A DNA stretch of 20,000 nt from Bacteriovoracaceae bacterium (GTDB lineage: Bacteria; Bdellovibrionota; Bacteriovoracia; Bacteriovoracales; Bacteriovoracaceae): positions 49,515 through 69,514 of the forward strand of contig JABIHA010000076.1 in assembly GCA_018649885.1 (NCBI GenBank), given 5' to 3'. The position numbers were made by a program, and so were the translations under genes. The notes under the pieces are model-generated. The model saw only the letters and a list, made by a program, of their open reading frames with translations, was not told the origin of the DNA and did not search any database. Shown here in pieces: positions 2-19,243 of this stretch (the stretch's first letter is position 1; every line of letters starts with the position of its first letter).

Positions 2-205
2 ATTGAGTTAATTCTAAATGGAGCGGCCATAAACTTTGTGGCTTACTCTAAATTTGTTACTCAAGATCTTGATGGTCACATTTTTCCACTCTTTATAATA
101 ATCGTGGCAGCAGCTGAGGCAGCTGTCGGTCTTGCAATTGTAATTAGATTTTATCAAATTCGAGAAACGATTCATATTGATGAAGCAACTCAATTACAAA
201 GTTAG
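2..205 (+). CDS. nuoK: NADH-quinone oxidoreductase subunit K (5'-partial, starts before window)
   Basis: Not in ORF track. Frame from base 2 reads IELILNGAAINFVAYSKFVTQDLDGHIFPLFIIIVAAAEAAVGLAIVIRFYQIRETIHIDEATQLQS* (TAG 203-205). Both NuoK glutamate motifs (IELxLN, AAAEAAVGLA) are present, directly upstream of nuoL. Confidence 0.95.
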   Translation: MELILNGAAINFVAYSKFVTQDLDGHIFPLFIIIVAAAEAAVGLAIVIRFYQIRETIHIDEATQLQS

Positions 206-223
206 GGTGAGGTAGAAAATATT

Positions 224-2407
224 ATGGATTATACAATTGGTACTGTCGCCCCTATTCTCTTGTTTCCTTTAGCAGCATTTGTAATTAATGCATTTATTGG
301 AAGAAAATTGCCCAGACAGGGTGATTGGGTTTCAATTATAGGAATACTTCTTTCTTTTGGTTGGTCTGCAAGAATTTTTAACGATTTTGTCTTTGGTCAC
401 TATTCTTCTGATTATTATGTTCACAAAGTTTTTACATGGATTGATTTATCTTATGGTGATTTTCCGTTTCAAATAGATCTTGGAATTTATATCGATAATA
501 TGACTGCCATGATGCTCTTGATGGTAAGTGGCGTTGCTGCTTTAATTCATATCTTTTCATCTTTTTACATGAAAGGTGATCCTCGCTACGGCAGATTTTT
601 TACATATTTGTCTCTGTTTACAACGGGGATGCTTGGCCTCGTATTATCTGAAAATTTACTTTCAGTTTTTATCTTTTGGGAATTGATGGGATTTTGTTCA
701 TACTCCCTTATTGGTTTTTACTATGAAAAAGAGGAGGCGGGTAACGCTTCCATGAAAGCATTTATGACCACTAGGGTAGGGGACGTCTGTTTCTTGCTCG
801 CGATTCTTGGAATTTGGTCAGTAGTTGGAAGTGTTAGCTTTGTCGATATATACAACCACTTAGCATCTGGAGCCTTTGAAGGACAAGTTGCGATACTGGG
901 AATACCACTAGCAAGCTTTTGTGCTTTTATGATTTTTGCAGGAACAATTGGAAAGTCCGCACAATTTCCACTTCAGGTTTGGCTACCCGATGCCATGATG
1001 GGCCCTACACCATGTTCGGCACTAATTCATGCAGCTACAATGGTTGCAGCCGGAGTTTATCTTTCACTAAGAATGTATCCACTAATGGAGGCGGGTCATT
1101 TGACGACCTTCATCGCCTATATTGGTGCCATAACTGCCTTTGGCGCAGCAACGATTGCTCTGATACAAACAGATATAAAAGCAGTGCTGGCCTATTCAAC
1201 AATTTCTCAGCTTGGTTATATGGTTTTGGGGATTGGGGTTGGCTCATACAATGCAGCCTTTATGCATTTGATCACACATGCTGTTTTTAAAGCATGTCTG
1301 TTTTTATCGGCTGGATCAGTTATTCACTCACTACACGATCACCATACTCATGGTCATGTTCAAGAAATGCCTCGAATGGGCGGACTTAGAAAGAAAATGC
1401 CATATACTTTTCTTGCAATGGCCTGCTGTACGCTAGCGATTTCTGGCGTGCCATTTTTCTCAGGATTTGTCTCAAAGGATAGAATTTTAGGAGATGCACT
1501 TTATTGGGGGATCACAGGACACCATGCCCATTGGTATCAAGCCATTCCACCCATATTAGGATTTGCAGCTGCATTCTTAACAGCTTTTTATATGTGCAGA
1601 ATGATGTTCTTAACATTTTTTGGAGAGCCAAGAGATAAAGAGCTTTATGAGCACTGTCATAAAGAGAAACTGTCATTAAATAGAAATATACCTCTACTCT
1701 TACTTGCTGTTTTTACACTTGGGGTTTGGTACTCGGGTTCTCTCACTGGCCAAGGCAAAGTTAAAGTCGCAGGTGATAGATATGAATGGTTTTCAACTCT
1801 AATTGAAAAGCCTAATACTTCTAATTTTAGAGAGTACACAAAAGAGCCCTTTGGACTAAAAGACACTAGGGGAACTGTTCACTTTGAAAAATCTCACTAT
1901 GATCCATCACACGGACTTAGTGAAGAAGAGGCTCATCATGTGCATACTGCTCACAATATTGGTGCTGGGCTATCTATCTTGGTTGCATTCCTTGGAATAT
2001 TCATAGCCTTTCTAATGTATATAAGAAAATCAATGGATCCGGGATTTTGGGTTCGAACATTCCATCGTTGGAATAAGGCACTAAAGGAAAAATATTATTT
2101 CGATCATCTTTATATTGATGTATTGATACAAAAAGTATTATTGACTGTGAACCGTTTGCTCGCAGCATTTGATATGGGTGTTTACGACCGCTTTGCCATT
2201 GATGGTATGGCTTCCGTAAACAGGTGGCTGTATAAGGCGGCAAACTTTTTTGATAATTTTATTGTCGATAATTCAGTAGATCTTACTGGTGTGTCCGTGA
2301 AGTTTTTAAATGTAGCTTCAAGAACGGTTCAGTCAGGAAAGGTTCAGTTCTATTTTATGGTACTGATACTTGCTGTAAGTTTTTATATATTAAAAATTAG
2401 CTTTTAA
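224..2407 (+). CDS. nuoL: NADH-quinone oxidoreductase subunit L (727 aa, extended lateral helix)
   Basis: Motifs [69 protein letters not shown]; C-terminal lateral helix and [8 protein letters not shown]; GAGG RBS upstream. Confidence 0.97.
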   Translation: [727 protein letters not shown]

Positions 2408-5431: not shown

Positions 5432-5460
5432 TCGACCTTCCAGTCTCCTAATTATATAAT
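5432..5460 (+). promoter_or_regulatory. Candidate sigma70 promoter for the divergent membrane-protein cluster
   Basis: TCGACC (5432-5437, 4/6 to TTGACA), 17-nt spacer, perfect TATAAT (5455-5460); GGAG RBS at 5484-5487 before TTG 5493. Confidence 0.55.
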
Positions 5461-5492: not shown

Positions 5493-5777
5493 TTGTCTGT
5501 TTTAACATTATTATTTATTGCTATTGTCCTGGTGATTTTGGCTGACCTAATCCTGGGTTCATTCACAGAGAAAAGTCTTGCGGCCAATTCTGTTTTTTTT
5601 TCCAAGAGGTCTTTCTCAACTAGCCTAGGTAGTATTTTAACTGCCCTTCTGAGGCTTTCTCTTTTTGCTGTGATAGTATCGGTTTATCTTTTCGGAGGGT
5701 TAAAAATAGAACCAAGCCAGCTTGTTTTGCTTTTTGGAATTTTGGCAATGATTTTATTTTTGATGCATAGAGGATAG
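5493..5777 (+). CDS. Small 3-TM membrane protein, divergent NuoA-like
   Basis: 94 aa, three hydrophobic segments with a loop after TM1. LSLFAVIVSVYLF falls where NuoA has FIIFDVExxFLF, and the end LMHRG resembles NuoA W-K/R-K-G. First gene of an A-H-J-K-L-M-N series. Confidence 0.55.
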   Translation: MSVLTLLFIAIVLVILADLILGSFTEKSLAANSVFFSKRSFSTSLGSILTALLRLSLFAVIVSVYLFGGLKIEPSQLVLLFGILAMILFLMHRG

Positions 5778-5780
5778 TAA

Positions 5781-6626
5781 ATGGTTATTGCGGGAACACT
5801 GTCTTTTTTATTAGTAAATATTTTGGCAGCAATTTTTGGCTTATGCGATAGATTTCTATTTAATTCAAAAAATTTTGGTTTCGGTAGCGCTAGCTCAAAT
5901 AAAATTACAAATAAAGAAAATTCAATATTTCTGCTGAGAAACAAAGCCAACTGGGAAAAAATGCATCCCATTGTATTGATGTACACTCATCTTTTAGTGC
6001 ATTTCGTTCTGATTTTCACATTACTTGTCAGCTCGCAGGGATGGAATACCTATCTCTATTTGAGTATTGCGAGTCAAATTTTAGTAGAGGTTTTATTTTT
6101 GGCCTTTAGTTTTAAAGGGCAGGGACAAAGTATTTCAAAGCTTTGGGAATTGTCCGCAGTGACATTTAGCTATGGCGTTTTATATATAGCACTTTTTTCA
6201 TATCTAATGTTTTTTTACATAGAAAATATTGGCAATGTAGATAAGGTTTTGTGTAGCCTTTTCCTGGTAGTCTTAATTGGAATTGAGGATAAATTTTGGC
6301 GCAATTATTTGGGAACTATTAGCCCCTTTAAATATGAAAGTATGACTCAAAATTTAAAGTTAGTGCTAAAACTCTTTTTGGTAGCAATTTCTGCAACAGC
6401 TCTACTTACACTGGATGGATCGGTTTTAGATCAATCAATTTCCAGTTTTTTAACACTAGGTAATATTGTTATTTCCACTATGCTTGTGGTTTTGTTTTTT
6501 CCTCTTATTTCGGTTGTTCACTTATGGGCCGATAAGATGAGTAGAAAAAATGCACTCGATCTCGCGAATTTAATTGCTTGGCCGGTGATATTTTTGGGCC
6601 TACTGATTGGAGGTCTCCTTGCATAG
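5781..6626 (+). CDS. Polytopic membrane protein, divergent NuoH-like
   Basis: 281 aa. AAIFGLCDRFL resembles NuoH A-F/Y-L-T-L-L-ERK; SAVTFSYGV resembles AAQxISYEV; C-terminal DKMSRKNALDLANLIAWPVIFLGLLI resembles PRxRYDQLMxLGWKxLLPLALxNL. Confidence 0.65.
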   Translation: MVIAGTLSFLLVNILAAIFGLCDRFLFNSKNFGFGSASSNKITNKENSIFLLRNKANWEKMHPIVLMYTHLLVHFVLIFTLLVSSQGWNTYLYLSIASQILVEVLFLAFSFKGQGQSISKLWELSAVTFSYGVLYIALFSYLMFFYIENIGNVDKVLCSLFLVVLIGIEDKFWRNYLGTISPFKYESMTQNLKLVLKLFLVAISATALLTLDGSVLDQSISSFLTLGNIVISTMLVVLFFPLISVVHLWADKMSRKNALDLANLIAWPVIFLGLLIGGLLA

Positions 6627-7080
6627 TATATTTTTAGAAGTAGCAATTTGGATATTTACAATTGTTTCTCTTTTGTATTTTTTATTAAATAAAAACTCAA
6701 TTAATCAGATCAAATCACTACTCGTAGTCCTGCTTTCAATCGCAATCTTATTTGTTAGTGCAAAACAATATCAGGCATTGATTGTTTTTCTTTTTGTTAA
6801 CTTGTTGGCCCTATTCTTAATAACCCTTTTCCACCTTAGTTTTGATGGATTTAAAGAAAAGGTGAAATTCTATAGGGGGATGAGGTTAGAGTCACTTATT
6901 AGTGTTGTGATTTGTTTAGGTCTACTTGGCCTATGTCTTCTTCTTTCAGAAAGATTTCCTGAGGATTACAACATAGATGTTTCAACATTAAGCTTAAAAT
7001 TTGAATTAATAGAAATAGCACCAATTTTTCTTTTATCAATTATGGGAATGGGATTAGTAGTCAAACATGGAAGTAAGTAG
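6607..7080 (+). CDS. Membrane protein, divergent NuoJ-like
   Basis: 157 aa, about 5 TM. LLNKNSINQIKSLLVVLLSIAILF resembles NuoJ xxxKNPVHSxLxLxxxxxSIAxLF; C-terminal FELIEIAPIFLLSIMGMGLV resembles PFExxSxLLLxAMIGAIxL. The start may be TTG 6619, after GGAGG 6609-6613. Confidence 0.65.
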   Translation: MEVSLHSIFLEVAIWIFTIVSLLYFLLNKNSINQIKSLLVVLLSIAILFVSAKQYQALIVFLFVNLLALFLITLFHLSFDGFKEKVKFYRGMRLESLISVVICLGLLGLCLLLSERFPEDYNIDVSTLSLKFELIEIAPIFLLSIMGMGLVVKHGSK

Positions 7081-7363
7081 CGAACTGACAATAGTGCGGT
7101 CATTCTGGGTTCTATATTTTGTAGGAATTGTAGGGTTTATTACAAAAAAAACTATTTCACAAAAATTGATGGCAGCTTTTTTAATACTGCTCGCTAACTC
7201 GGCTTTATTGCTTTCAAATGTTGACAAGGCTCAATCTGGAAAAGAAGCATTTGTTTTTTCCATAATTTCAGTTGTGTCACTTTTAACTCTTTTATTGTTT
7301 TACTTAATATCGAATAAAATATTGTTCAAATATAAAACCTTAGATTTGGATACTTTAGAATAG
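7067..7363 (+). CDS. Small 3-TM membrane protein, divergent NuoK-like
   Basis: 98 aa. LYFVGIVGFITKK resembles NuoK LFxIGxxGxLxRR; C-terminal YKTLDLDTLE resembles the window's own NuoK RETIHIDEA; both glutamates are absent. Confidence 0.7.
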   Translation: MEVSSELTIVRSFWVLYFVGIVGFITKKTISQKLMAAFLILLANSALLLSNVDKAQSGKEAFVFSIISVVSLLTLLLFYLISNKILFKYKTLDLDTLE

Positions 7364-8995
7364 ATGATTATATTTTTATACTTTACCCTATTTAATCTTA
7401 TGAAAAGCCTTCTTACAAAACAGCGTTATTTGTTGTTTGGGTTTGGCATGTTTTTCTACGTTTTCTATTCAGCATGGTTAAATTTTGCAGGAGAAGTTAA
7501 TTTAATAGGTTTTGATTCAATAGTGGGGGCAAGCTCACTTTGGAGTATTCAATCAATTTTGACAAGAAGTGATATCTTGCTTTTAACGTTTGTTACAACT
7601 GTTCTTGGCCTCGTTGGAATTGGTTCCACAAATCGAAATTGGATTTTAAAAAGAGAAACACACTATCTGTTTCAGTTCTTACTTTTAGTATTTCTTATTG
7701 GCGCCAAAAATGTCTTGTTTGTACCAGTCGTTTTGGGTGCAAAAATTCTTGCAGATGAATGGAAAAAAGAAGATTTTGGTATTGGGGTAACGGATTGGAT
7801 TTTAGCAATTTCACTTTTAGCAGTTTTAATTAGTGACAAAATGACTCTATTTGGTGAGATTCAGGTGGATGGTGTTAGCCGTGTAGTGTTGTATGCCATT
7901 TCAATTGTTTTTTCTCTGCACTCAGCAATCAAGGTATTTCTTGCCTCGCGAAACTTTACACATCGTCATATTGAAAGAGCCTTTTTTGATCTGATGGTTC
8001 TTCTGATTTGTCTTGGCAAATTATCAGCTGTTGATATTGCTGCTTATGGAGTGGCCTTTGATTTTATCGCCCTTGTATTTTTGGCGCTATCACTAGTTCA
8101 AGTTATGAGTTGGAAAAAAGGCGCAAAAAATACCTTTCAAAGGTTTGTCCTTCTAAAAGTTAGCCTTTATTTATTCTTTCTATTCTCCACGAGAAGTAGT
8201 GGTGTTACTCAGCTCTTTATAGGGGATATATTCTTTCTCTGTTCAGTAAATAGTCTTTTTTTCTTAAACAAGAAAGATCATCTGGCTTTTAAGGTGGTTC
8301 CATTCTTATTAACATTAGTATTTTTGGGAATACCTTTTGTTGGACTGACCTCTCTTGAAACCTTTTTCTATAAAGAGATGTTACTTTCTAAGAGTCTCAC
8401 TTTAGGATTGATTGTATTGTTACTCAACTTATCTTCAAATCTATACTTTATTATTTTTATTAAGAAAAAAGCACTGGAGAGGCGAGATCAAAAATTTGAC
8501 AACAAAAATATCATCTTTGCAGTAATGCTACTCACTTTGAATATTGGGATGCTTCCAATGATTCAATACATTTCGGGAGTTAACTTTAGTTATTCAGAAA
8601 ATCCGTGGGAAATAGTCGCAATCGTTTTCTTCTTGTTGCTGAAAGCCTTTTTCGTAGTGTATTTCTTAATTATACCGGCCCAATTTAACAAAGAAGTAAA
8701 AGGTGAGGGGATGCCACTGCTTGTCTTGGGTAAATTTAGATTAAAAAATGACTATGGTTTGGAGAAGAGATTATTCCCAATATATTACCTATTCACCGCT
8801 TGTGCCAAAGCAATATCCTCGGCATTTGTGGTCTTTGAATTAGGAATTAGGCAGTTAGGAACTCTTTTTCTCGAGCTAACGGTACTAGCTGAGGGAAGAG
8901 GAAGCTATATTTTCAATAAGCAGCTTACATATATTTTATTAATTTTTTTATTTCTAATCCTTAGTTTAGCAAGTGGGATTAATTTATGGGCCTAG
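7364..8995 (+). CDS. Polytopic membrane protein, divergent NuoL-like
   Basis: 543 aa. [16 protein letters not shown] aligns with NuoL [28 protein letters not shown] aligns with [11 protein letters not shown], followed by a roughly 50-aa amphipathic segment and a final TM. Confidence 0.65.
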   Translation: [543 protein letters not shown]

Positions 8996-10119
8996 GTTGG
9001 TTTAGTATATTTTTACTGGTCATAGTGAGCGGGATGTCTTTTTTAAAAAGAAAAAGTACCGTTGGGCTAATAGTTTCACAGGGCCTAATTTTAACACTAG
9101 GAGCATCTCTTTTGATTGGATCGGTATGGAACATTGATCTTGCAACGGGGTTGATCCTTCTTGCTGGAGCACAGGTCTTCTCATATTCAATTAATCGCAT
9201 GTTGGATGTTGAACAAAAATTGTTATCACTGTTACAATTTACTCTTCTTTTACTTCTATCCTCCTCACAAATTTTTTTACATAGCTTATTATTATATGAA
9301 GGGGTTCTCATTTTTCTTTTATATGGAGCCCTAGGGAGTGCTGCGAGTTCTAATTTAAGTATTTTACGTAGATATGCATTTTTTCAAGGTTTGTTGATAT
9401 TCCTTGGAACAATAGTGCAGTTTTACATGCAGGAGAAAATTTCTTCTGGCGCTAGTCTTTCACAGAGTGAGTCAGGTGCAAATGCTCTTAGCTATTTAAT
9501 GCTATTTTGTCCTCTTTGGATCCTCGGTATTGGGGTTGAGCGGGTTTTTTCGAATACAAGAGGTATCATTCAAGTTCATATTCTAAGTACAATTGTATTT
9601 TTACAATTAATTTTGCTTGGAAAAGTTAACATTGAATCTCTTTATTTTTATTCTCATGAGATTTTTTGGGCCATTCCATTTTTACTAATGGTGATATTTT
9701 CATTTTCTAGAATTTTTCTTGGGCTAAATTCATTTTATTCTGGAGTCAGAATATTTGTGGCCCTAATAGTATTATCTTATATATTTAGCCCACTTAAAAT
9801 GAGAGTTGAGATCATGTCATACCTACCGTTTTGGGTGATAACATATTCTATGGCCACTATTTTCCTTGAGGAAATTTGGCATCAGCAGTTATTTGGGCCC
9901 TGGAGGGGAAAGTTAAAGTTATGTGTATTGGTAGTTCTAGTCGGGTTACCTATCACACCATTTTTTAATATTGTAAAACTATCATTTTATTTTACAAAAA
10001 TTGATGCAATTAGACCTCTAGGGGTTTGTGTTTTAACAGGATGGATAATTGTTGTACTTGGGCTGGGTCTTGAGAGCATTTATGGAGTATATGCAGATGA
10101 TAAAGAGATGAGGGTATAG
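8986..10119 (+). CDS. Polytopic membrane protein, divergent NuoM-like
   Basis: 377 aa. SQIFLHSLLLYEGVL aligns with NuoM SLDFFLFYVYWEIML; LVGLPITPFF aligns with SLGLPGLSGF; lies between the L-like and N-like ORFs. Confidence 0.6.
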   Translation: MGLGWFSIFLLVIVSGMSFLKRKSTVGLIVSQGLILTLGASLLIGSVWNIDLATGLILLAGAQVFSYSINRMLDVEQKLLSLLQFTLLLLLSSSQIFLHSLLLYEGVLIFLLYGALGSAASSNLSILRRYAFFQGLLIFLGTIVQFYMQEKISSGASLSQSESGANALSYLMLFCPLWILGIGVERVFSNTRGIIQVHILSTIVFLQLILLGKVNIESLYFYSHEIFWAIPFLLMVIFSFSRIFLGLNSFYSGVRIFVALIVLSYIFSPLKMRVEIMSYLPFWVITYSMATIFLEEIWHQQLFGPWRGKLKLCVLVVLVGLPITPFFNIVKLSFYFTKIDAIRPLGVCVLTGWIIVVLGLGLESIYGVYADDKEMRV

Positions 10120-10121
10120 AG

Positions 10122-11324
10122 ATGCTACAGCTAGTATTTGCTATATGTGCACTAGTATTAATTGTTGAAAGGTACCAAGGTGTTGATAGGATTCGCTTGG
10201 GCCTAAATGCCATTTTCTCTACGGCCTCATTTTTTATTTGTATTTATTCAATTTTTAGACCGGAGATATTTAATCTTCAGCTTGGGATTAACTCATTTTT
10301 TATCACTGCGCTATTTGGAATGAGTGGTGTCTGTTTTTTAAGTCTTCTGATACAAAATAGTCGTCTGAGCCCATCTTTTTTAATTATGATCACCTCATTT
10401 TTTTATTTCTTATTTTCATTTGATTCCATCATTCCTTTGTATATTTTATTGTCAATGATCTTACTCTTTAGATCCTCTCTTTATATTACAGCAAAATCAT
10501 ACTCTCAAAAGCTGGTGATGAATACGGTGCTACTTGATTTACTTTCGTTTGTATTTTTGAGCATGTTTACAACCTTTTTTATTATTTCCACTAATAGTTT
10601 TAATATTTTTGATTTTCAAGTTGTCGGTAGAACAACCTTTATCATTTCTCTCATAAATCTTGTTCTAGCATCCTTGGTTGTACTACGCTTGCCACCGTTT
10701 CATACTGGGATATTAAATTTATATCGAGTGAATAGTCACATTGTAAGTTTGGAATCTTTGATTGTTAGGCCTTTTTTGGGTCTGTTTTTCTTTAGAGTCG
10801 TGTCTAATATTTTAAGAGAGATTGACCCAGAGTATTTTGCCCTGATTCAAGATTCATTATTTATAGTAATGGCTGCATCACTATTTTTTAATTTTGTGAT
10901 TTTCAATTGGAAGAAAAGCATTGAATCATTTTTATTTAATTCATTTAGTCAAAATGTCTTACTTCTTTATATGTTACTCATTGTAGGGAGTAACGATTTA
11001 CAAAATGATTCTCTGTTTTTTATTATACCCATGGGGAGCCTTCTGCTTTTTATTGGATGGAATTCATATATTGGATATACCGCAAGTGATGAGTATCAAA
11101 ATAAAGGAAGTGAGAGGCTAGGCTTTGTGTTCCTCTTCTATGCTAGCTTTGCACTTCAGCTATTTCTGCCATTTTGTTTTGATGTTACAAGATCGTATAT
11201 TTCGGAGCTTTCAATTGAAAAACTATTTGTTTTTAGTATCGCTGTGGCCATAAACAAGGCTGCTATAATTAGTAAGACCAATTTGTCGGCAAGAAGTGAA
11301 ATGACTGCCAGGGTAAAGAGTTGA
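10122..11324 (+). CDS. Polytopic membrane protein, divergent NuoN-like
   Basis: 400 aa. PPFHTGILNLY...IVRPFLG..FRV aligns with NuoN VPFHMWSPDVY...IVPKLAG...IRV; DSIIPLYILLS aligns with NNLLTVYLGIE. Confidence 0.65.
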   Translation: MLQLVFAICALVLIVERYQGVDRIRLGLNAIFSTASFFICIYSIFRPEIFNLQLGINSFFITALFGMSGVCFLSLLIQNSRLSPSFLIMITSFFYFLFSFDSIIPLYILLSMILLFRSSLYITAKSYSQKLVMNTVLLDLLSFVFLSMFTTFFIISTNSFNIFDFQVVGRTTFIISLINLVLASLVVLRLPPFHTGILNLYRVNSHIVSLESLIVRPFLGLFFFRVVSNILREIDPEYFALIQDSLFIVMAASLFFNFVIFNWKKSIESFLFNSFSQNVLLLYMLLIVGSNDLQNDSLFFIIPMGSLLLFIGWNSYIGYTASDEYQNKGSERLGFVFLFYASFALQLFLPFCFDVTRSYISELSIEKLFVFSIAVAINKAAIISKTNLSARSEMTARVKS

Positions 11325-14300
11325 AAAAGTATAGAATTAAACTAGAAAATGGAAGAGTTATAGGTCCATTTGCCAAGGAGCAGGTAGGTGAGCTCTATAT
11401 AAAAGGCCATATATATGGGCAGGAAGATTGTCAGGAGTTTCCCGCGGGGAAATGGCAAGATCTTGAATCATTTAGTGAGTTGTCTGAGCTTATTGTTGAT
11501 ATTATTGCAGGAAAAGTCTCTTTGGAGGTGTTGCAAGATAGGCAGAAGACTGTTTTTAAGAAAATATCAATTAAGAAAATTCATGAACTTCCAGATTCAC
11601 TAAAAAAAGAAGATAAGAAATTTGACTTGAAAGAGTTTGATTTTGATTCAGATGAAGAATTTAATTTTGAATCTGTTGATGAAAGTAAAAAAGATTCCGA
11701 ACTAAATTTGAGCAAATTATTTGAAGCTCATAAAGACGATGAAACGACTCCTTCAAAAGAAATGGTAAATCCTCAGCATATTGAAGAAACTCATGTTGAA
11801 AAGGATATTGGTGAAATTCCGTCCTTTGATGATGAAGATGATGAATTGAATAAAACCGTTATTAATAAATCATTTGAAAACTTTCCGCTGAAACAAAACG
11901 AAGAGGAAAAGGTTGAAGAGGATACTCCAAGCATAATTGAAGAGGTGTTAGAAAAAGCTAAAACCGATGGGCCAAGTAGTGAGGAGCAAGATGATATTGC
12001 TCCCGCGGTCTCCGATACGGAAATTTCTTCAGATGATCATACTGTAGTGGGTTCGTTAAAAGACTTTAAGTCTGATTTAATTAAAAAGGCTTCAAAATTT
12101 GAAGCAAATTTAGTTAGAGTAGAAAAAAAAGATCGTGCTGAAAAGAAGGCAAAATCAGAGACACCTCAAATTGCACCGCCAGAAGAAAAAAAAGAAGTTA
12201 AGAAACAAAAACCGATTTTTAAGATGGCAGCACTTTTAGTCGTTCTTGCAGTTATATACCAAGTGTTTTTAGGTGGAGAAGATAAGCAGAAAAATTTTAA
12301 GCCGATTTTTCCCGACATTGCCTTTCCTTTCCCCTTTGAAAAACCAAACCCAAAGGCTGCTTTAAAATATTTGAGAGAAGGCCTAGAATTATATAAGTTG
12401 GGAAGCTATAAGCATAAGGCTTTAGCTGCTAGAAAATTCAAAGATTCTCTCGACAATTCTTTTGAAAAAAACAAAGCACTAGGACATCTACTATTAACTT
12501 ACGCAGAGTTGTTGGAAAATGCCAAAGATAGAGAAAAGGCGAATCTTAAAGTTTACCAATTAGTCGAAGTTTCTAAAGGTCGTGTTTTAACGGATCAAAA
12601 GATTGCCATGGGCTCTGCCATTTTTTTCTTAAAATTGGGAAGACCAAAAGCTGCGTTGAAATTTCTTAATGATTTTTTGAGAGTAAATAGCAGCTCGGAT
12701 ATTAAGGCTGAAGACAAAGCTAAAATCTCGCTTAAGTTCTATGCTGTGTATCTAAGTGTTTTGATTGACCTTGGCGAAATGGCTGACGCTAGAAAAAAGC
12801 TCAATGGCTTAGAGCCCATACCGGATGATAAAAAGTCACTTGAAGTATATTCATCAATTGTACAATTTCATTTGAAAAATGATGATTACAATAAGGCAAA
12901 GGACGTAATTGAAAAGGGGCTGAAGTATTTCCCTTGGTCTGTAAGTTTAAGACTAACCCTGTGCCAAATTTATTCATATTTTGAAGAATATGATTTATTA
13001 AACTCAGAGTTAAAAAGAGTCAAAAAATTAAATTCGGAATTTTCAGTCGTTTACTATGCAAAATACCTTGAATTTATGGGGATTTTAAACGCTGTAAAGA
13101 AAGAATATAAAAATGCGGCAGTATTTTTTAAAGCAGCTCTAAAGTTAAGAGAAAATGATTCACTTAGATCAAAGCTCGCTCTACTAGAGGAATCCTCTGA
13201 AGCCAACTCAGATCCTGACATTGGAGCTCTTGTTAAAGAAAGTAAAGCACTTGATCTCATTAAGAAGTCGAAAGTAGAGGCATCTAACGGAAATTTTAAT
13301 AAGGCCCTGATACTAGCTCTTGAGGCCAGGGAGGGGTTCCCGAATTATGTGCCTGCGATTATTTACCTTTCCGACTTGCAAATTCGAAGAGGATTTTTTG
13401 ACGATGCAATTGAGACTCTTATTAAAGCTAAGAAAGCGAGCAAGTTGAATCAGCATATTATTTATGCACTAGTAAGAGCTTACGCTGAGTCATTCAAGGT
13501 GTCCGAGGCGAAGAAGACGCTTTCGATTTTAAGAGAAACAGAACACCGAAATAGTTACCAATTTGCCAGCGCTCTTGGACATATTTATTATAAATCAAAC
13601 GAATTTCTACAGGCAGTTAAATGGCTCAGAGAAAGTACCAATCTAAACCCTCTTAATGAAAAAGATTTTTTTAAGCTGGGAAGCCTGTTCTTAAGATATA
13701 GACGATATGATAAGGCAAAAATACTTCTATGGAAGGCGATCAGTCTTGATCCTTCGAATATTAAATATCAAATCGCCTATAGTAGAATTTTATATGAGCT
13801 TGATAGTGTTGATGTGGCGATCGGATACCTGCGGGATATTTTGAAGGAATATAACGATAGCGGCTTAATTCTATCTCAAATTTCGATTTATTATTATAAA
13901 AGTGGTCAGGTTAAAGCCTTTGAACAGTATAAAGAAAGGGTCATGAAATCTCTACATATTGGAAAAGATCTTTTTGATTTTCTTATTAAGGCATCTAAGC
14001 TTGAAGATAAAAAAGAAGAAATCATTAAAAATTATGAAGCCTATATAAAAGTTGAACCAGGAGATTTAGCTAAGCAACTCGAATTTGGAGAATACCTTCT
14101 TAGTGAGTCTGATCTGACCGCTGCCGAAAAAGTATTTACTAAAATTGAAACTAAGTTAAAAAGTTACCCGAAGGTGAAGTTTTTCTTGGCAAATATTAAA
14201 CTGATGAGTGGTAAGGAAGATGAGGCCCTTATTTTAGCTCAAGAAGAGATAAAACTTAATCCAAATATTGAGTACGGCTATACACTTCTTGGTCATATTT

Positions 14301-14620
14301 ATACAAAAAAAGAAGAATATAATAAGGCCTTAAAAAACTATAAACATGCTCAAACTATCAATCAGAACTCAGTCGATGCTCTTCTTGGTTTGGCCTGGAT
14401 TAAATATCAGCAGAATCAGATTGAGTCGGCACTTGATCTTTATGAGAAATGTGCCAAGCTCGATCCAAATAATTCATTTGTCAGAAAACAACTAGGATAT
14501 GTATATAAGGCATTGGGCCAAAGGCAGCTTGCGATTGAATCATTTAAGGTCTATCTTGATCTCAGTCCAGACGCACCTGATAGGAAGAAGATTGAGTCCC
14601 AATTAAATTCATTTCAGTAG
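11321..14620 (+). CDS. Large single-pass membrane protein: N-terminal GYF_2-like domain, acidic linker, TM, long TPR array
   Basis: N-terminus YRIKLENGRVIGPF...LYIKGHI...GKWQDLESFSEL fits the GPF-containing GYF_2-like pattern. A D/E-rich low-complexity linker precedes TM MAALLVVLAVIYQVFLGG, then many TPRs (e.g. GYTLLGHIYTKKEEYNKALKNYKHAQTINQN, ALLGLAWIKYQQNQIESALDLYEKCAKLDPNN). Start TTG overlaps the upstream TGA. Confidence 0.85.
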   Translation: MKKYRIKLENGRVIGPFAKEQVGELYIKGHIYGQEDCQEFPAGKWQDLESFSELSELIVDIIAGKVSLEVLQDRQKTVFKKISIKKIHELPDSLKKEDKKFDLKEFDFDSDEEFNFESVDESKKDSELNLSKLFEAHKDDETTPSKEMVNPQHIEETHVEKDIGEIPSFDDEDDELNKTVINKSFENFPLKQNEEEKVEEDTPSIIEEVLEKAKTDGPSSEEQDDIAPAVSDTEISSDDHTVVGSLKDFKSDLIKKASKFEANLVRVEKKDRAEKKAKSETPQIAPPEEKKEVKKQKPIFKMAALLVVLAVIYQVFLGGEDKQKNFKPIFPDIAFPFPFEKPNPKAALKYLREGLELYKLGSYKHKALAARKFKDSLDNSFEKNKALGHLLLTYAELLENAKDREKANLKVYQLVEVSKGRVLTDQKIAMGSAIFFLKLGRPKAALKFLNDFLRVNSSSDIKAEDKAKISLKFYAVYLSVLIDLGEMADARKKLNGLEPIPDDKKSLEVYSSIVQFHLKNDDYNKAKDVIEKGLKYFPWSVSLRLTLCQIYSYFEEYDLLNSELKRVKKLNSEFSVVYYAKYLEFMGILNAVKKEYKNAAVFFKAALKLRENDSLRSKLALLEESSEANSDPDIGALVKESKALDLIKKSKVEASNGNFNKALILALEAREGFPNYVPAIIYLSDLQIRRGFFDDAIETLIKAKKASKLNQHIIYALVRAYAESFKVSEAKKTLSILRETEHRNSYQFASALGHIYYKSNEFLQAVKWLRESTNLNPLNEKDFFKLGSLFLRYRRYDKAKILLWKAISLDPSNIKYQIAYSRILYELDSVDVAIGYLRDILKEYNDSGLILSQISIYYYKSGQVKAFEQYKERVMKSLHIGKDLFDFLIKASKLEDKKEEIIKNYEAYIKVEPGDLAKQLEFGEYLLSESDLTAAEKVFTKIETKLKSYPKVKFFLANIKLMSGKEDEALILAQEEIKLNPNIEYGYTLLGHIYTKKEEYNKALKNYKHAQTINQNSVDALLGLAWIKYQQNQIESALDLYEKCAKLDPNNSFVRKQLGYVYKALGQRQLAIESFKVYLDLSPDAPDRKKIESQLNSFQ

Positions 14621-14634
14621 TATAGGAGCTGCTT

Positions 14635-15906
14635 ATGCACGACATAAAAGCAATTGCCAAAAGCCCTGATAAATATAGGGAAAACCTCGCAAGAAGGAAA
14701 TTCGACCTCTCAATTTTAGAGGCGGTCATAGAAGGCAACGAGAGGCGTAAAAAACTCGTACTTGAGTCGGAGACAAATCGCTCTGAAGTTAAAAAACTCT
14801 CTAAGGAAATCGGAAAAATCAAAGGCTCTGGTGGTGATGCAAAAGAGCTGATGTCCCAGGTTTCTCAGCTAAAAAGCTCGCTTGAAGGTGTTAACAAGGA
14901 ACTTGAAGCCCTTGAAAAATTACAAAGCGACACTCTCGCGGTTATTCCAAATCTTCTTGATGACGAGGTACCAGAGGGTAAAGGCGAGGAAGATAATAAG
15001 CTTTTAAAAGAAGTTGGCGAAAAATTGAGCTTTGACTTTGAACCCAAAGAGCACTGGGAACTGGGTGAAGATCTAGGCATGCTCGACTTTGAGGCTGCCT
15101 CAAAACTGACCGGATCGCGTTTTTGTGTATACAAGGGAGCGCTGGCCAGAATGGAGCGTGCGCTTATTAACTATTTTCTCGATTCACATATTGATTGTGG
15201 ATACGAGGAGATTATTCCTCCCTATATTGTTAACGAAAATACCATGTATGGAACAGGCCAGTTGCCAAAATTTGAAGATGACCTTTTTAAAATCGAAGGA
15301 AAGTCTTGGTATCTGATTCCTACTGCTGAAGTTCCCCTCACGAACCTTAAAAAAGGTGAGTTATTCAAAGGTGAGGAGCTGCCTTTTAAATATTGTGCCT
15401 ACACCCCTTGCTTTCGAAGTGAGGCTGGCTCGTACGGAAAAGATACTAAAGGTCTTATTCGTCAGCATCAGTTTAATAAGGTGGAGCTAGTTAATATTGT
15501 GGCCGAAGATAAATCTAAGGAGGCACACGATGCCATGTTGGAGAGGGCCTGCGCTATGCTCGAAGGCCTTGGTCTTACCTACAAGGTCATGCTTCTTTGT
15601 TCTGCCGATATCGGATTTGGTGCCATGAAATGCTTTGATCTAGAGGTTTGGCTTCCTGGTCAGGGCAAGTTTCGTGAAATCAGCTCAATTTCTAATTGTG
15701 GCGAATTCCAGGGAAGAAGGGCCTCGATTAGATATCGAAATGCTGAGGGAAAGCCAACATTTGTCCATACCCTTAATGGATCGGGCTTGGCAGTTGGTAG
15801 AGCACTTGTAGCGGTGATGGAAAATTATCAAAATGCAGACGGGAGCATTACTGTTCCCGAAGTACTCAGAGGATATATGGGCGGAGTTGAACAAATAAAA
15901 GCATAA
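14635..15906 (+). CDS. serS: Serine--tRNA ligase
   Basis: N-terminal coiled-coil arm, YGTGQLPKFEDDLF, LIPTAEVPL, CFRSEAGSYGKDTKGLIRQHQFNKVE, REISSISNC, HTLNGSGLAVGR; AGGAG RBS. Confidence 0.98.
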   Translation: MHDIKAIAKSPDKYRENLARRKFDLSILEAVIEGNERRKKLVLESETNRSEVKKLSKEIGKIKGSGGDAKELMSQVSQLKSSLEGVNKELEALEKLQSDTLAVIPNLLDDEVPEGKGEEDNKLLKEVGEKLSFDFEPKEHWELGEDLGMLDFEAASKLTGSRFCVYKGALARMERALINYFLDSHIDCGYEEIIPPYIVNENTMYGTGQLPKFEDDLFKIEGKSWYLIPTAEVPLTNLKKGELFKGEELPFKYCAYTPCFRSEAGSYGKDTKGLIRQHQFNKVELVNIVAEDKSKEAHDAMLERACAMLEGLGLTYKVMLLCSADIGFGAMKCFDLEVWLPGQGKFREISSISNCGEFQGRRASIRYRNAEGKPTFVHTLNGSGLAVGRALVAVMENYQNADGSITVPEVLRGYMGGVEQIKA

Positions 15907-15973: not shown

Positions 15974-16063
15974 GGTGGTGTGGCCGAGTGGTTTAAGGCA
16001 ACAGTTTTGAAAACTGTCGTGGGTTCACGCCTACCCGGGGTTCGAATCCCTGCACCACCGCCA
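15974..16063 (+). tRNA. tRNA-Ser (anticodon TGA)
   Basis: Acceptor GGTGGTG/CACCACC + G discriminator + CCA; anticodon stem ACAGT/ACTGT, loop TTTGAAA; long variable arm; T-loop TTCGAAT. Confidence 0.96.
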
Positions 16064-16097
16064 TTTTTGAAGTGATTTATTTTTCGAAGATTTAAGC

Positions 16098-16185
16098 GGA
16101 GACGTGGGTGAGTGGCTTAAACCAACGCCTTGCTAAGGCGTCGTACCTTCGGGTACCCCGAGTTCGAATCTCGGCGTCTCCGCCA
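16098..16185 (+). tRNA. tRNA-Ser (anticodon GCT)
   Basis: Acceptor GGAGACG/CGTCTCC + G + CCA; anticodon stem ACGCC/GGCGT, loop TTGCTAA; variable arm GTACC-TTCG-GGTAC; T-loop TTCGAAT. Confidence 0.96.
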
Positions 16186-16588: not shown

Positions 16589-17551
16589 ATGTCAGATAGA
16601 AACTACATTTACGAAAATGCGATTATATCCATCCACTTAGGTATCGCAGATTATCAAGATGATGATACGAACAGGCATATTAGTGCTGTTAGAAATTTTT
16701 ATTCTGGTGTCCTTTTACTTGGGAAATGCTGCTTGCTTGAATTTGCCAAAGCTGAAGAAGCAATGCAAATCTTAGCGTCAAAATTTGATATTGAGTTGGA
16801 TGATGACGGTGAAGTTATTTATGTTCCAAAGGGAACGCAAACAATAGATTTTAATGAAATGCAAAAAAGATTTAAAAACTTTAAGCTAAGCTGGCCCAAG
16901 GTAAATATAAAAAGTCTGCAAAGTTTAAGAAATAATCTTGAGCATTTTCATGCTTCTGAATCAGAAGATCAAATTCAAGAAATCATTGCTGAATGTTTTC
17001 CCATGGTAGAGAGCTTCTTTGAAACGCTCAATAAAGACCCTGCTGAGGAACTGGAAGATACGTGGAAGACAATGTTGGAAGAAAAAAACTTCTATAGTAA
17101 GAAGAAGGAAGAGTGCGATAAAACGTTTGAGAAAATTGATGTCCCAAACGTTGATGGCCTCTCGAACATTAGCTGTCCAGGATGCAGCTCAACTCTATTA
17201 TTTCAAGAAAACCCTAGTAACATTAACCTTGAATCTGTTGAGGTTAAGTGTAAAGCTTGTGGCGAAACATGTCCTACAACTTCATTTATTTTGGAATTTG
17301 TTAATAATGAATATGGGGTGGATGATTATATTTCATACAAAGATGGTGGAGGTCATACTGTTCATTCTTGTCCAGAATGTAGTGAAGATACATATGTACA
17401 TAATGGAGAAATTAACAAGTGTTTTAACTGTAACTATTCGATAAATTCAGAATGTGCGCGTTGCCAGTGCGAATTGACTGTTGAAAATTTGTCCGTAAAC
17501 AACTCTAGTTACTGTGATTATTGTGACCACATGATGAGTAAGGATGATTAA
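16589..17551 (+). CDS. Hypothetical protein with HEPN-like RxxxxH motif and C-terminal multi-CxxC zinc-binding region
   Basis: Helical N-terminal half with LRNNLEHF; six CxxC pairs (CPGC, CKAC, CPEC, CFNC, CARC, CDYC); AAGGA RBS; TATAAT at 16551-16556. Confidence 0.7.
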   Translation: MSDRNYIYENAIISIHLGIADYQDDDTNRHISAVRNFYSGVLLLGKCCLLEFAKAEEAMQILASKFDIELDDDGEVIYVPKGTQTIDFNEMQKRFKNFKLSWPKVNIKSLQSLRNNLEHFHASESEDQIQEIIAECFPMVESFFETLNKDPAEELEDTWKTMLEEKNFYSKKKEECDKTFEKIDVPNVDGLSNISCPGCSSTLLFQENPSNINLESVEVKCKACGETCPTTSFILEFVNNEYGVDDYISYKDGGGHTVHSCPECSEDTYVHNGEINKCFNCNYSINSECARCQCELTVENLSVNNSSYCDYCDHMMSKDD

Positions 17552-17641
17552 ATGGTGCCGCTCCCTTGGGTATTCGATTCTTCTATTTACCGATATGTAG
17601 GTTTTCAGTACCGTCACCAAAGAGAAGCGCCATATTTTTTT
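17552..17641. terminator. Imperfect long stem-loop with T-tract between convergent genes (possible terminator)
   Basis: ATGGTGCCGCTCCCTTGG (17552-17569) pairs imperfectly with CCAAAGAGAAGCGCCAT (17617-17633), followed by ATTTTTTT. The loop is unusually large (about 47 nt). Confidence 0.3.
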
Positions 17642-17670
17642 CTTGAGCGATGCTCTATTTAGCTTAAAAA

Positions 17671-17931
17671 TTAAATAATTCCTATAGAAGCATCAACTCT
17701 TCCTGAAAGTCCACCAAGGTCGACTATCACAAACCATCTTCCCGCATGGGGAGGATTAATGATTGCTGGCGATCTGCTGTAGTGACCACCACTATAACGA
17801 TATCTTCTGCCAGCTTTGTAATTACTAAAATTGATAGCATCCATAACCATCACATTCGCTGCGTTTCCCGTAAGGTCAACCTGGATAGCATCACTGCCTG
17901 CTGTCTGAATTTCTTTGTATAAATATTTCAT
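17671..17931 (-). CDS. DUF1883-like small beta-rich protein
   Basis: 86 aa; AANVMVMDAINFSNYKAGRRYRYSGGHYSRSPAIINPPHAGRWFVIVDLGG matches my recollection of the DUF1883 pattern (ANVxLMDxxNFxxYxxGRxxxYxGG...SP..I..P..G.W...D). Confidence 0.8.
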   Translation of the reverse strand: MKYLYKEIQTAGSDAIQVDLTGNAANVMVMDAINFSNYKAGRRYRYSGGHYSRSPAIINPPHAGRWFVIVDLGGLSGRVDASIGII

Positions 17932-17933
17932 AA

Positions 17934-18143
17934 CTATCCTAGGTTATTTCTATTTTTGCCATCAGGGTTACTTACAGGGGTTTTAACTTTGTTAATTTTA
18001 CGATTGTGATAATCCCCTTCGTGTTTGCCCTGTTCAATCTCTTTAACGAACTCCTGTCTTGAAATTTCCTTACCGTTTGGTTTTTCAAAACGTTGATTTC
18101 TTCCAGTCTTACTTTCTTTAGTCACCTTAATGTTCTTAGCCAT
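17934..18143 (-). CDS. DUF3892-like small basic protein
   Basis: 69 aa; ESKTGRNQRF...SRQEFVKEIEQG...KTPVSNPDGKNRNNLG fits the DUF3892 pattern ending S-x-P-D-x4-N-N-L; AAGGAAGG RBS; stop is 2 nt from the DUF1883 start. Confidence 0.75.
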   Translation of the reverse strand: MAKNIKVTKESKTGRNQRFEKPNGKEISRQEFVKEIEQGKHEGDYHNRKINKVKTPVSNPDGKNRNNLG

Positions 18144-18188
18144 TTTGTACCTTCCTTATTGGTAGAATTGGTTATTTATTATGAATAA

Positions 18189-18230
18189 ATGGTAGAGTCT
18201 TTTTAAAGGCTATGTCAATGGCCTTGACAT
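18189..18230 (-). promoter_or_regulatory. Leftward promoter overlapped by palindromic operator ATGTCAA-N5-TTGACAT
   Basis: Perfect palindrome at 18212-18230; minus-strand TTGACA (18218-18213), 18-nt spacer, TACCAT (18194-18189). Confidence 0.6.
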
Positions 18231-18315
18231 GTTTTTCGTGCTGTCGTTTACTGTCGCGCGAACGCGTGTAATTTCAATTGCATGCGTGGCTTTTGCTGTG
18301 CGTGGGCCAGTGACA

Positions 18316-18344
18316 TTGACATAAGGACTTAGAAGAAATATAAA
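18316..18344 (+). promoter_or_regulatory. Rightward promoter of the XRE gene, probably giving a leaderless mRNA
   Basis: TTGACA (18316-18321), 17-nt spacer, TATAAA (18339-18344); ATG at 18350 lies at the expected +1, and there is no SD at normal spacing. Confidence 0.6.
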
Positions 18345-18349
18345 AGATT

Positions 18350-18694
18350 ATGAATATTGATAAGCTATATTTAGAAATTGGCCAAAATATAAAAGCAGCA
18401 AGGCAAATCGTAAAGCTAAGTCAGGCAGAGCTTGCTACTAAACTAGGTTTAAAAAGAACATCAATTACAAACATTGAAAATGGCAAACAGAGGCTTCCTC
18501 TTCATTTATTATATGAGATTTGTGAATTATTAAATGTTGATGCCCTTAAAGTTCTTCCAGGTACTCAAAGAGAAAAAAGAAAAATGATTGTGTCGATTGA
18601 TGGTGGGGATGAATACCAGATTAGCGAAGATTCCGTTGGCAAAATAAATAAGTATTTATCAAAAGCAAAACTAGAAAATGTTCTACATCATTAA
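18350..18694 (+). CDS. XRE/Cro-CI family HTH transcriptional regulator
   Basis: IGQNIKAARQIVKLSQAELATKLGLKRTSITNIENGKQR...LYEICELLNV is a typical HTH_3 pattern. Confidence 0.92.
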   Translation: MNIDKLYLEIGQNIKAARQIVKLSQAELATKLGLKRTSITNIENGKQRLPLHLLYEICELLNVDALKVLPGTQREKRKMIVSIDGGDEYQISEDSVGKINKYLSKAKLENVLHH

Positions 18695-18705
18695 TAAAGG
18701 TTGTT

Positions 18706-19212
18706 ATGAATAAAAAAGCATCCGCTTTGTTAAAGGAAAATAGTTTATTTTCATATCCTGTTGATGTGAAAAAGCTCGCAAAGAAGCTAAAGGTAATTGT
18801 TTCCTCTGAAGACCTTGAAGATAAAGTATCAGGGTTTTTAGCTGTTGATGATGATAATGCGACAATTGTTGTAAATTCTAATCATCACGAAAATAGAAAA
18901 CGTTTTACGATGGCACACGAATTAGGCCATTTTGTACTACACAAAGGGAAAATGCCCCTATTCTTAGATACCAATCTGAAATTTTATAGAAGTGCAGTTC
19001 ATAGTGAGCATTCTGCTGAAATTGAAATGGAAGCAAATGCATTTGCTGCAGAACTATTGATGCCGAAATTGTTAATTGAGAAAATAATTGAAACTTACGA
19101 TTTAGATATAACTGATGAATATGACATTTACCAGCTTTCTAAAAAACTAAAAGTAAGCGAACAGGCCCTAACGATTAGGCTTGTGAAGTTAGAATTAATT
19201 TTTCCATTCTAG
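18706..19212 (+). CDS. ImmA/IrrE family zinc metallo-endopeptidase
   Basis: RKRFTMAHELGH (HExxH), EMEANAFAAELLMP, C-terminal LSKKLKVSEQALTIRL; 168 aa, too short for a GAF domain. Confidence 0.92.
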   Translation: MNKKASALLKENSLFSYPVDVKKLAKKLKVIVSSEDLEDKVSGFLAVDDDNATIVVNSNHHENRKRFTMAHELGHFVLHKGKMPLFLDTNLKFYRSAVHSEHSAEIEMEANAFAAELLMPKLLIEKIIETYDLDITDEYDIYQLSKKLKVSEQALTIRLVKLELIFPF

Positions 19213-19243
19213 AGCCAACAATCAGACAAATCGTCTTCTAGGC

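Follow-up and report, generated by a model that had tools for sequence, protein, structure and literature searches.

Introduction

Complex I (NDH-1) is among the most conserved energy-converting machines. Complex I-like enzymes of 11 subunits, which have no NADH module NuoEFG, have been described, for example in Desulfitobacterium hafniense (PMC11238625). In the Bdellovibrionota, PMC13147790 reports a stand-alone nuoAHJKLMN cluster, together with nuoC-nuoD fusions and a second nuo cluster in predatory taxa. Here we analysed a stretch of 20,000 nucleotides from a Bacteriovoracaceae bacterium (assembly GCA_018649885.1, contig JABIHA010000076.1, positions 49,515 to 69,514 of the forward strand), called the window throughout, in which canonical nuo membrane genes are followed by a block of seven hydrophobic open reading frames (ORFs) at positions 5493..11324. 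Our analysis indicated that these ORFs probably encode the A2-H2-J2-K2-L2-M2-N2 membrane arm of an additional complex I-type enzyme, which is anciently diverged and belongs to the Bacteriovoracaceae-like family.

The closest described system is the membrane arm of complex I itself (PF00507, PF00146, PF00499, PF00420, PF00361). The block shares with it gene order, relative sizes and numbers of transmembrane (TM) segments; in the alignment of ORF7 with NuoN the PFH motif is in register, NuoJ and NuoK can be aligned with ORF3 and ORF4, the folds predicted for ORF5 and ORF6 are antiporter-like, and the positional counterparts in relatives are ordinary Nuo subunits. Unlike a described arm, the ORFs of the window fall below all family thresholds, are shorter and evolve very fast, and charged residues of NuoK and NuoN are replaced. 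The composition of the second set (NuoB2, a NuoC-NuoD fusion, NuoI2 and seven membrane subunits) would match the 11-subunit enzymes, but the set is split over two loci, its membrane genes are appended to the canonical membrane operon, and both its quinone-site motifs and its channel residues are degenerate. The canonical cluster that precedes the block has the arrangement of the Bdellovibrionota nuoAHJKLMN cluster; no description of a diverged second A-H-J-K-L-M-N set in tandem with it was found in the literature searched, which included passages of PMC13147790, 10.1101/2025.03.13.643058 and PMC3526173. Mrp-type cation/proton antiporters and MBH/Ech-type modules have the antiporter-like fold (PF00361) in common with the block, as well as a small subunit of the NuoK/MrpC kind. 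Mrp differs in having no NuoA, NuoH or NuoJ counterparts in this order, and by Pfam and NCBIfam the syntenic intact copies of the block are of the Nuo and not of the Mrp type.

Seven intact ORFs follow the canonical nuo membrane operon

The genes of the canonical operon, the block and the two following genes are listed below; all listed genes of the window are on the + strand unless stated otherwise.

2..205, + strand: canonical nuoK, 3' part (start upstream of the window; the full ORF of 101 aa is on the contig); PF00420 59 bits, NCBIfam NuoK models
224..2407, + strand: canonical nuoL, 727 aa; NF005141 584 bits, PF00361 264 bits
2423..3946, + strand: canonical nuoM, 507 aa; TIGR01972 605 bits
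3965..5431, + strand: canonical nuoN, 488 aa; TIGR01770 410 bits
5493..5777, + strand: ORF1, A2 (NuoA position), 94 aa, about 3 TM segments; TTG start; assigned by position, size and TM count only
5781..6626, + strand: ORF2, H2 (NuoH position), 281 aa, about 8 TM segments; position, size and TM count, FSYGV motif
6607..7080, + strand: ORF3, J2 (NuoJ-like), 157 aa, about 5 TM segments; weak profile matches to NuoJ
7067..7363, + strand: ORF4, K2 (NuoK-like), 98 aa, 3 TM segments; weak profile matches to NuoK
7364..8995, + strand: ORF5, L2 (NuoL position), 543 aa, about 16 TM segments; predicted-fold neighbours (ESM Atlas)
8986..10119, + strand: ORF6, M2 (NuoM position), 377 aa, about 13 TM segments; predicted-fold neighbours (ESM Atlas)
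10122..11324, + strand: ORF7, N2 (NuoN-like), 400 aa, about 13 TM segments; NuoN profile match, PPFHTG motif
11321..14620, + strand: TPR protein gene, 1099 aa; TPR Pfam families
14635..15906, + strand: serS; TIGR00414 514 bits

On the contig, the canonical cluster is a membrane-only operon made of nuoA (137 aa), nuoH (384 aa), nuoJ (177 aa), nuoK (101 aa), nuoL, nuoM and nuoN. The closest named records for its NuoN were three metagenome-assembled genomes (MAGs) of Bacteriovoracaceae/Bacteriovoracia with 54-58% identity, among 80 loci found with a NuoN alignment; this search used patterns that were too general, so that close relatives account for 3 of the 80. ORF1 starts 61 nt after nuoN, at a TTG codon with GGGGAG 6 nt upstream. 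Successive junctions from ORF1 to ORF7 are +3, -20, -14, 0, -10 and +2 nt, and ORF7 overlaps the TPR gene by 4 nt. An earlier note, made from the sequence alone, had described seven intact, abutting hydrophobic ORFs of 94, 281, 157, 98, 543, 377 and 400 aa after canonical nuoN; they were found exactly where it had placed them, and the Nuo motif traces it had quoted are all present, at positions proportionate to the canonical ones.

The openness of these frames is far beyond chance for DNA of 33.5% GC, because the longest stop-free run in 500 shuffles had a mean of 91 and a maximum of 181 codons, against 543 codons observed for ORF5. From base composition, the probability that 543 codons stay open is about 2e-17. 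Over the block, the window was identical (0 differences) to contigs of four runs taken from four marine metagenome studies, indicating that the open frames are not an assembly artefact.

One syntenic slot holds intact, intermediate and unrecognisable arms

The DNA 3' of canonical nuoN was compared in 31 genomes of the same family, each from another genus (handles G001 and following). A block of hydrophobic ORFs occupied the slot between nuoN and the TPR gene in 21 of them. All seven ORFs were recognisable in 5 genomes, 1 was intermediate, 13 were unrecognisable and 2 were partly deleted (G044, G006), while the block was absent from 10; these classes rest on Pfam scans of 105 + 28 proteins, except for G056 and G016, which were classed by ORF size only (intact-type and ghost-type sizes, respectively). 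Blocks of the unrecognisable class, including that of the window, are referred to as ghost arms. The seven ORFs corresponded to Pfam NuoA, H, J, K, L, M and N in G019, G018 and G008 with strong matches and in G045 with weaker ones. In the intermediate genome, G041, the H (56 bits), J (24 bits), K (51 bits) and N (40 bits) subunits were still detected, and A, L and M were unrecognised. No block ORF reached a Pfam threshold in 12 scanned genomes, where G004 alone gave a faint sub-threshold NuoK match. In the genomes with no block (G001, G020, G052, G017, G049, G046, G002, G005, G007 and G048), nuoN runs straight into the TPR gene. The layout of a canonical followed by a ghost arm was also seen in a Bacteriovoracia MAG (L114).

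ORF sizes in the block shrank from intact toward ghost along this series. Gene order and synteny at the nuoN-block-TPR slot connect the window to recognised copies (G018, G019, G045 and G008, with G041 as the intermediate). The states of the block were interspersed on a NuoN tree, which was built by a quick method and is poorly resolved; its supported branches force at least three changes of the ghost state, four of absence and two of the intact state. The block has thus decayed and been lost repeatedly, and one and the same locus is seen at all stages, from an ordinary second membrane arm to the state found in the window.

Identity of the individual ORFs

None of the seven ORFs of the window reached a Pfam or NCBIfam threshold, and the sole sub-threshold Nuo match was that of ORF4 to PF00420 (19.6 bits, E 7.6e-4, below the cut-off of 26.1). 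Position-specific profiles were more informative. ORF7 alone aligned to a NuoN profile made of canonical sequences, four to six second copies and the intermediate (hhalign: 88.5%, E 2.7e-6, 201 collinear columns; official tool: 89.4%, E 2.1e-6). Its off-position controls, which included the paralogous L and M profiles, gave E-values of at least 0.17 with hhalign, and the best off-position control over all tests of this kind had E 0.03. Weak but specific matches were obtained with hhalign for ORF3 to NuoJ (E 4.2e-4) and for ORF4 to NuoK (E 2.6e-4); both ORFs were also recruited in iterative hidden Markov model (HMM) searches (E 1.9e-4 and 3e-5, respectively), without off-position recruits. When the ORFs of the window were compared with ghost profiles of other genera, only J matched, through ORF3 (E 5.7e-4 over 125 columns). 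A ghost-H profile of 12 genera that included ORF2 aligned to NuoH (72%, E 3.3e-5); ORF2 alone had no match, nor did it match stepping-stone NuoH profiles. Iterative HMM searches for L, M and N drifted, picking up K and A proteins, and their results were set aside as invalid.

Motifs could be followed along the series. In NuoN, canonical VPFHMW becomes FPFH(A/S)W in intact second copies, FPFHTW in the intermediate and PPFHTG in ORF7. In NuoH, the series runs VSYEI, VSYEL, VSYQM, YSYGS and FSYGV, from the canonical protein to ORF2. TM segments counted by crude hydropathy (3/8/5/3/16/13/13 for ORF1 to ORF7) matched the canonical numbers (3/8/5/3/14-17/12-15/12-15) at all seven positions. Single-sequence ESMFold models of ORF5 and ORF6 were compared with other models, so that both sides of the comparison are predicted: the nearest neighbours of ORF5 (predicted template modelling score, pTM, 0.56) were ND5/NuoL clusters with TM-scores of 0.67-0.70 over about 460 residues, and those of ORF6 (pTM 0.57) were PF00361 clusters with TM-scores of 0.74-0.79 over residues 1-377.

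Collectively, as far as sequence comparison goes, these data showed that the block is homologous as a unit to the complex I membrane arm and that ORF7 and, by weaker matches, ORF3 and ORF4 are individually homologous to NuoN, NuoJ and NuoK. For ORF5 and ORF6 the models showed an antiporter-like predicted fold. Position, size and TM number indicate that ORF1 and ORF2 are probably descendants of NuoA and NuoH. The view of the earlier note, an old paralogous NuoA-H-J-K-L-M-N set in canonical order, is upheld by the synteny series, the N, J and K profiles and the ESMFold models for L and M. The comparison with profiles and structures that it had proposed gave a profile match for N, weak ones for J and K, and predicted-fold neighbours of moderate-confidence models for L and M; ORF1 and ORF2 gave no signal.

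Ghost arms of a related genus evolve fast but under purifying selection

Selection was measured on the ghost-type block in the genus of G015, the genus of the window having no sequenced close relative. Ratios of nonsynonymous to synonymous divergence (dN/dS) were calculated by the Nei-Gojobori method (NG86) against three species at dS 0.2-0.9, more distant pairs having higher, partly saturated dS. They were as follows.

Ghost A: 0.13-0.19
Ghost H: 0.06-0.08
Ghost J: 0.02-0.04
Ghost K: 0.02-0.05
Ghost L: 0.08-0.12
Ghost M: 0.09-0.11
Ghost N: 0.014-0.04
Canonical genes: 0.00-0.06
TPR gene: 0.03-0.04

Because dN/dS lies between 0.014 and 0.19, the Pfam-invisible ghost arms of this genus are protein-coding genes under purifying selection, fast-evolving but not neutral. 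Their dN is about 10-80 times the canonical dN for L, M and H. Ghost L was detected in 6 of the 13 species of the genus counting G015 (the other five at 85, 84, 73, 47 and 43% identity) and was undetectable in 7. In five species, the most distant with identities of only 37-47%, the seven ghost ORFs had near-identical lengths.

In the same species pairs, dS was 0.05-0.34 for canonical nuoH to nuoN and 0.4-0.9 for the adjacent ghost and TPR genes (L198-L202). Strong codon bias is a possible cause of the low canonical values, as is recombination or gene conversion between species.

In the window, the in-frame codon-usage likelihood of the seven ORFs (-3.87 to -3.96 per codon) equals that of nuoL, nuoM, nuoN and serS, with a normal frame advantage; intact frames and normal codon usage suggest, indirectly, that these copies may be under selection as well. 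The claim of the earlier note that the block is kept under selection as protein was borne out directly in the genus of G015, and for the copies of the window it is extended from there. The survey of synteny and dN/dS it had suggested came out in its favour, with dN/dS far below 1 in the genus of G015 and a block in 21 of 31 relatives.

Canonical residues are lost from the membrane subunits

Canonical NuoN is 56-61% identical to that of 11 other genera and has more than 100 invariant columns across 12 genera. In contrast, ghost proteins of different genera are 13-19% identical. Alignments of ghost H, J, K, L, M and N from 11-12 genera, which are uncertain and error-prone outside anchored motifs, contained no invariant column except the start Met, with 10-26% identity to the window. 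Among residues common to the canonical and the intact second copies, the window keeps 1/21 in A, 17/106 in H, 11/29 in J, 8/20 in K, 19/180 in L, 26/136 in M and 13/68 in N. Each ORF is also 3-31% shorter than its canonical counterpart.

We take the channel residues to be the pair of TM glutamates in NuoK and, in L, M and N, the Glu of TM5, the Lys of TM7, the Lys/His of TM8 and the Lys/Glu of TM12. Their columns were read from the same uncertain alignments, in which both TM glutamates of NuoK are replaced in ORF4 (E36>F and E73>T), and ORF7 carries E139>S, K224>V and K400>C relative to NuoN. Conserved charged positions are kept at 1/11 in N, 3/21 in M and 4/25 in L. The E/K/K/K series of NuoN is present in intact copies, has lost three of its four members in the intermediate and is gone from the window. 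The conserved channel residues of a functional proton-pumping arm are accordingly not seen in the window. The idea that the arm has been stripped of charge was tried and was not borne out by an alignment-free count, in which charged residues were not depleted from the hydrophobic segments; given this count and the uncertain alignments, the statement that the data support is that canonical positions are lost.

A divergent Q-module is encoded elsewhere in the genome

The earlier note had reported no hydrophilic subunits. This holds at the locus but not in the genome, where a divergent module of the cognate type, comprising NuoB, C, D and I counterparts, is encoded on contig C8.

Contig C8: NuoB2, 170 aa; PF01058 72 bits
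Contig C8: NuoCD2 (NuoC-NuoD fusion), 541 aa; PF00329 78 bits and PF00346 183 bits
Contig C8: NuoI2, 161 aa; two CxxCxxCxxxC motifs

Canonical nuoB-C-D-I are on contig C69, and only one NuoF-type gene was found in the genome, on contig C56. A long-frame CD2-type gene was found in 18 of the 21 block-bearing relatives, and that of G015 is so diverged that Pfam does not detect it; in the remaining two, whose genomes are just 66% complete, none was found. The genomes are kin, so these counts are not a statistical test.

The His-bearing loop HPxxHG of the D subunit and the Tyr of GYxHR are presumably its quinone-site motifs. In the intact-arm genomes examined (three: G018, G019 and G056), CD2 had both motifs, reading GPSHPATHG and GYLHR, as it did in G053 and G043. 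Among 11 ghost-arm genomes counting the window, the His loop was kept in none and the Tyr was lost in 6. CD2 of the window reads KISTWTKSTHLSFK at the His-bearing loop and VGFLHR at the second motif, with Tyr replaced by Phe, and the intact quinone-site motifs are therefore missing from it. In NuoB2, the Cys ligands of the N2 cluster are kept in the window and in intact-arm genomes and are lost in 7 of 22 genomes. Overall conservation is far higher in CD2 (26 invariant columns across 24 genomes) than in the arm. The parallel decay of the arm and of the CD2 quinone motifs argues that the arm and NuoB2-NuoCD2-NuoI2 belong to one complex, and that this complex is moving away from canonical chemistry in all its parts. 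From this decay and the co-occurrence of their genes we infer that they may be physically assembled. A three-chain structure prediction of the D part of CD2 with NuoB2 and ORF2 scored 0.00, the fold of ORF2 itself being uncertain, and speaks neither for nor against the assembly.

Several observations were made on this module in individual genomes. An ORF of 509 aa with a lipoprotein-like N-terminus precedes nuoB2-CD2-I2 in the genome of the window (G000 contig C8:20437-24637, L059), and one of 496 aa without a Pfam match does so in G052; this upstream ORF may be a conserved extra component. In G052 (L110, G052:C6:34000-53999), no block follows canonical nuoN; a complete nuoA-N-type operon of about 14 genes lies elsewhere in the genome, with B2-CD2-I2 immediately after it, and this B2 has no Pfam match and is without cluster cysteines. 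The CD2 counterpart in G015 (L108, G015:C6) has 505 aa and is 21% identical to that of the window (E 4e-6). It is unrecognisable to Pfam, so that the hydrophilic module can become a ghost too; the ghost arm of G015 is among the most shrunken. In two genomes of 5.6 Mb (G053:C2 and G043:C11), an L/M/N set begins within a few kb downstream of a CD2-type gene and has the same orientation, which suggests that the second complex is one contiguous operon there, with the canonical D-subunit motifs kept.

The TPR gene and the flanking region

A TPR orthologue lies directly after the block, or after nuoN, in the relatives whose contigs reach that far, and serS usually comes next. The N-terminal part of the protein is acidic and of low complexity; a single hydrophobic segment lies near residue 300, and TPR repeats are numerous. 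The earlier note had offered the block as a platform for this protein. As a block-specific role this was ruled out, the TPR gene following nuoN in 10 of 10 block-less relatives as well; its distribution suggests that the conserved tie is with the membrane operon of complex I and not with the ghost block.

The 61-nt gap between nuoN and ORF1 contains no terminator-like site. It holds the best match of a promoter scan:

5432..5460, + strand: candidate promoter-like site, TCGACC-17-TATAAT (10/12)

The scan found 49 such sites against 53 expected, which is chance level, and this one is a lead only.

Genes for tRNA-Ser (anticodons tga and gct) lie just 3' of serS (15974-16185). They are followed at 16589-19888 by a DUF3644-like ORF, a gene pair of an XRE-type helix-turn-helix protein and an IrrE/M78-peptidase, and, on the - strand, an ORF of 214 aa whose phage-integrase match (21 bits) stays below the cut-off of 27.1. 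This region looks like the remnant of a mobile element inserted beside the tRNAs.

Proposed role and alternative explanations

In the lineage of the window, the arm would have diverged past family-level recognition, yet its seven membrane proteins would still be produced and would keep the canonical topology. The divergent Q-module NuoB2-NuoCD2-NuoI2 is its likely partner, and the two together would form a complex of the 11-subunit type without its own NuoEFG. The seven proteins would insert and pack into an arm-like assembly, probably under NuoB2-CD2-I2. Since the Fe-S ligands of B2 and I2 are kept in this genome, Fe-S clusters may remain in the assembly; Phe stands in place of the quinone-site Tyr, the His loop of the D subunit is scrambled, and the channel residues of K, L, M and N have been replaced. 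With quinone ligands and channel residues lost, the complex has most likely ceased to be a quinone-reducing proton pump of the canonical kind. What selection seems to maintain is the fold, the packing and the membrane insertion, and not individual residues. The earlier note had called the arm repurposed; what the data show is the loss of canonical residues, and a new function would be a further step. A tentative possibility, which we consider appreciably less probable than the identity of the arm itself, is that the ghost arm and its degenerate Q-module assemble as a complex I-shaped machine that does without canonical catalysis and has been co-opted in predatory Bacteriovoracia. Candidate roles would be a membrane scaffold or organiser, another redox reaction on the kept Fe-S clusters, or a regulated ion path.

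A number of results weigh against a second complex I-type enzyme that is still maintained. ORF1, ORF2, ORF5 and ORF6 showed no sequence or profile similarity to any Nuo profile, and ghost-only profiles (H, N, L and M) had no match among PDB sequences at E<=10. ORF5 and ORF7 are near-orphans in sequence searches: BLASTP of ORF5, ORF6 and ORF7 against canonical L, M and N gave no match; ORF5 had none in the genomes of 40 relatives and retrieved only itself in a search of 5.8 billion clusters; for ORF7, an exhaustive phmmer search returned a fragment of itself and one protein of 298 aa (E 5e-5), and 237 genomes of the family gave no non-self match below E 1e-3. In an all-versus-all phmmer comparison of 118 positional proteins, no ORF of the window had a match. 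The support for the L and M folds comes from ESMFold models of moderate confidence (pTM 0.56-0.57) set against models that are predicted too. AlphaFold2 (AF2) models of ORF5 and ORF7, based on ghost-only alignments of 12 rows, were unusable (predicted local distance difference test, pLDDT, 46 and 47); when searched with Foldseek against the PDB, they gave best E-values of 0.48 and 0.66 to unrelated helical repeat proteins, which were treated as meaningless. Charge is not depleted from the hydrophobic segments, which would still allow ion conduction. Of the 31 relatives, 10 have lost the entire block and 2 more have part of it deleted, which marks it as dispensable. A CD2-type gene was present in 3 of the 10 block-less relatives (G001, G052 and G048), which weakens the partnership. 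The genus of the window has no close relative; the four metagenome populations are identical to the window and offer no polymorphism for a comparison of nonsynonymous and synonymous polymorphism (pN/pS), and no RNA runs are listed for the window DNA.

The most probable of the alternatives, although we regard it as unlikely, is a functionless relic. Its frames would stay open, and its sequences hydrophobic, only because the genes are still transcribed and translated in an operon whose last members are the conserved TPR gene and serS. Nonsense mutations would have polar effects on these two genes, misfolding membrane proteins would be toxic, and selection would be for harmlessness. Such a relic would fit the observations that H, J, K, L, M and N show no invariant column but the start Met in 11-12 genera and that NuoB2 has lost its Fe-S ligands in parallel in 7 of 22 genomes. 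The 4-nt overlap couples the block tightly to the TPR gene. The clean losses and partial deletions, repeated as they were (with states interspersed on the NuoN tree and at least three to four independent changes forced by supported branches), argue for dispensability. Harmlessness, however, would not be expected to hold ghost N, J and K at dN/dS values as low as that of the TPR gene, nor would it readily account for ORF lengths that stay near-identical in five species down to 37-47% identity, or for the retention of all seven genes together in at least 13 genera.

Slightly less probable still, in our judgement, is that the ghost proteins serve canonical complex I, as alternative subunits, assembly scaffold or supercomplex partner, and not NuoB2-CD2-I2. 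The position of the block fits this, since it comes straight after canonical nuoA-H-J-K-L-M-N, has the same orientation, and is separated from it by a gap that contains no terminator-like site; so do the three block-less genomes that keep a CD2-type gene. Against it, the same slot in relatives holds a complete, ordinary second A-H-J-K-L-M-N set, which implies a complex of its own; moreover, CD2 tends to be found where the block is, and its quinone-site motifs degenerate in step with the block. A further, weak point against it is the promoter-like site in the gap. That the seven ORFs are an unrelated multi-subunit membrane system mimicking Nuo order and sizes would agree with the absence of detectable Nuo sequence similarity in four of them and with AF2 models that found no complex I chain, but is highly improbable in the face of the graded series at one syntenic slot, the profile matches of ORF7, ORF3 and ORF4 with clean controls, the ESMFold neighbours of ORF5 and ORF6 and the matching TM numbers.

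Significance

With the seven ORFs read as the arm of a second complex I-type enzyme, one family presents at one syntenic slot all stages from a normal second arm to seven proteins that match no family model, and the unrecognisable stage is still under purifying selection in the sole genus where this is measurable. The space of 'hypothetical membrane proteins' can thus include hyper-diverged copies of known machines. The series is a natural experiment on which constraints (fold, topology or subunit packing) survive once catalytic residues are free to change. If the block were only a tolerated relic, it would still be a calibration case for remote-homology and structure-prediction methods. If the machine has indeed been co-opted, selection would be keeping its architecture only, and the decay series would separate the structural from the catalytic needs of complex I. 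For the predatory bacteria of this family, the locus points to a possible non-canonical use of the complex I scaffold, and Halobacteriovorax and Bacteriovorax are their cultivable relatives.

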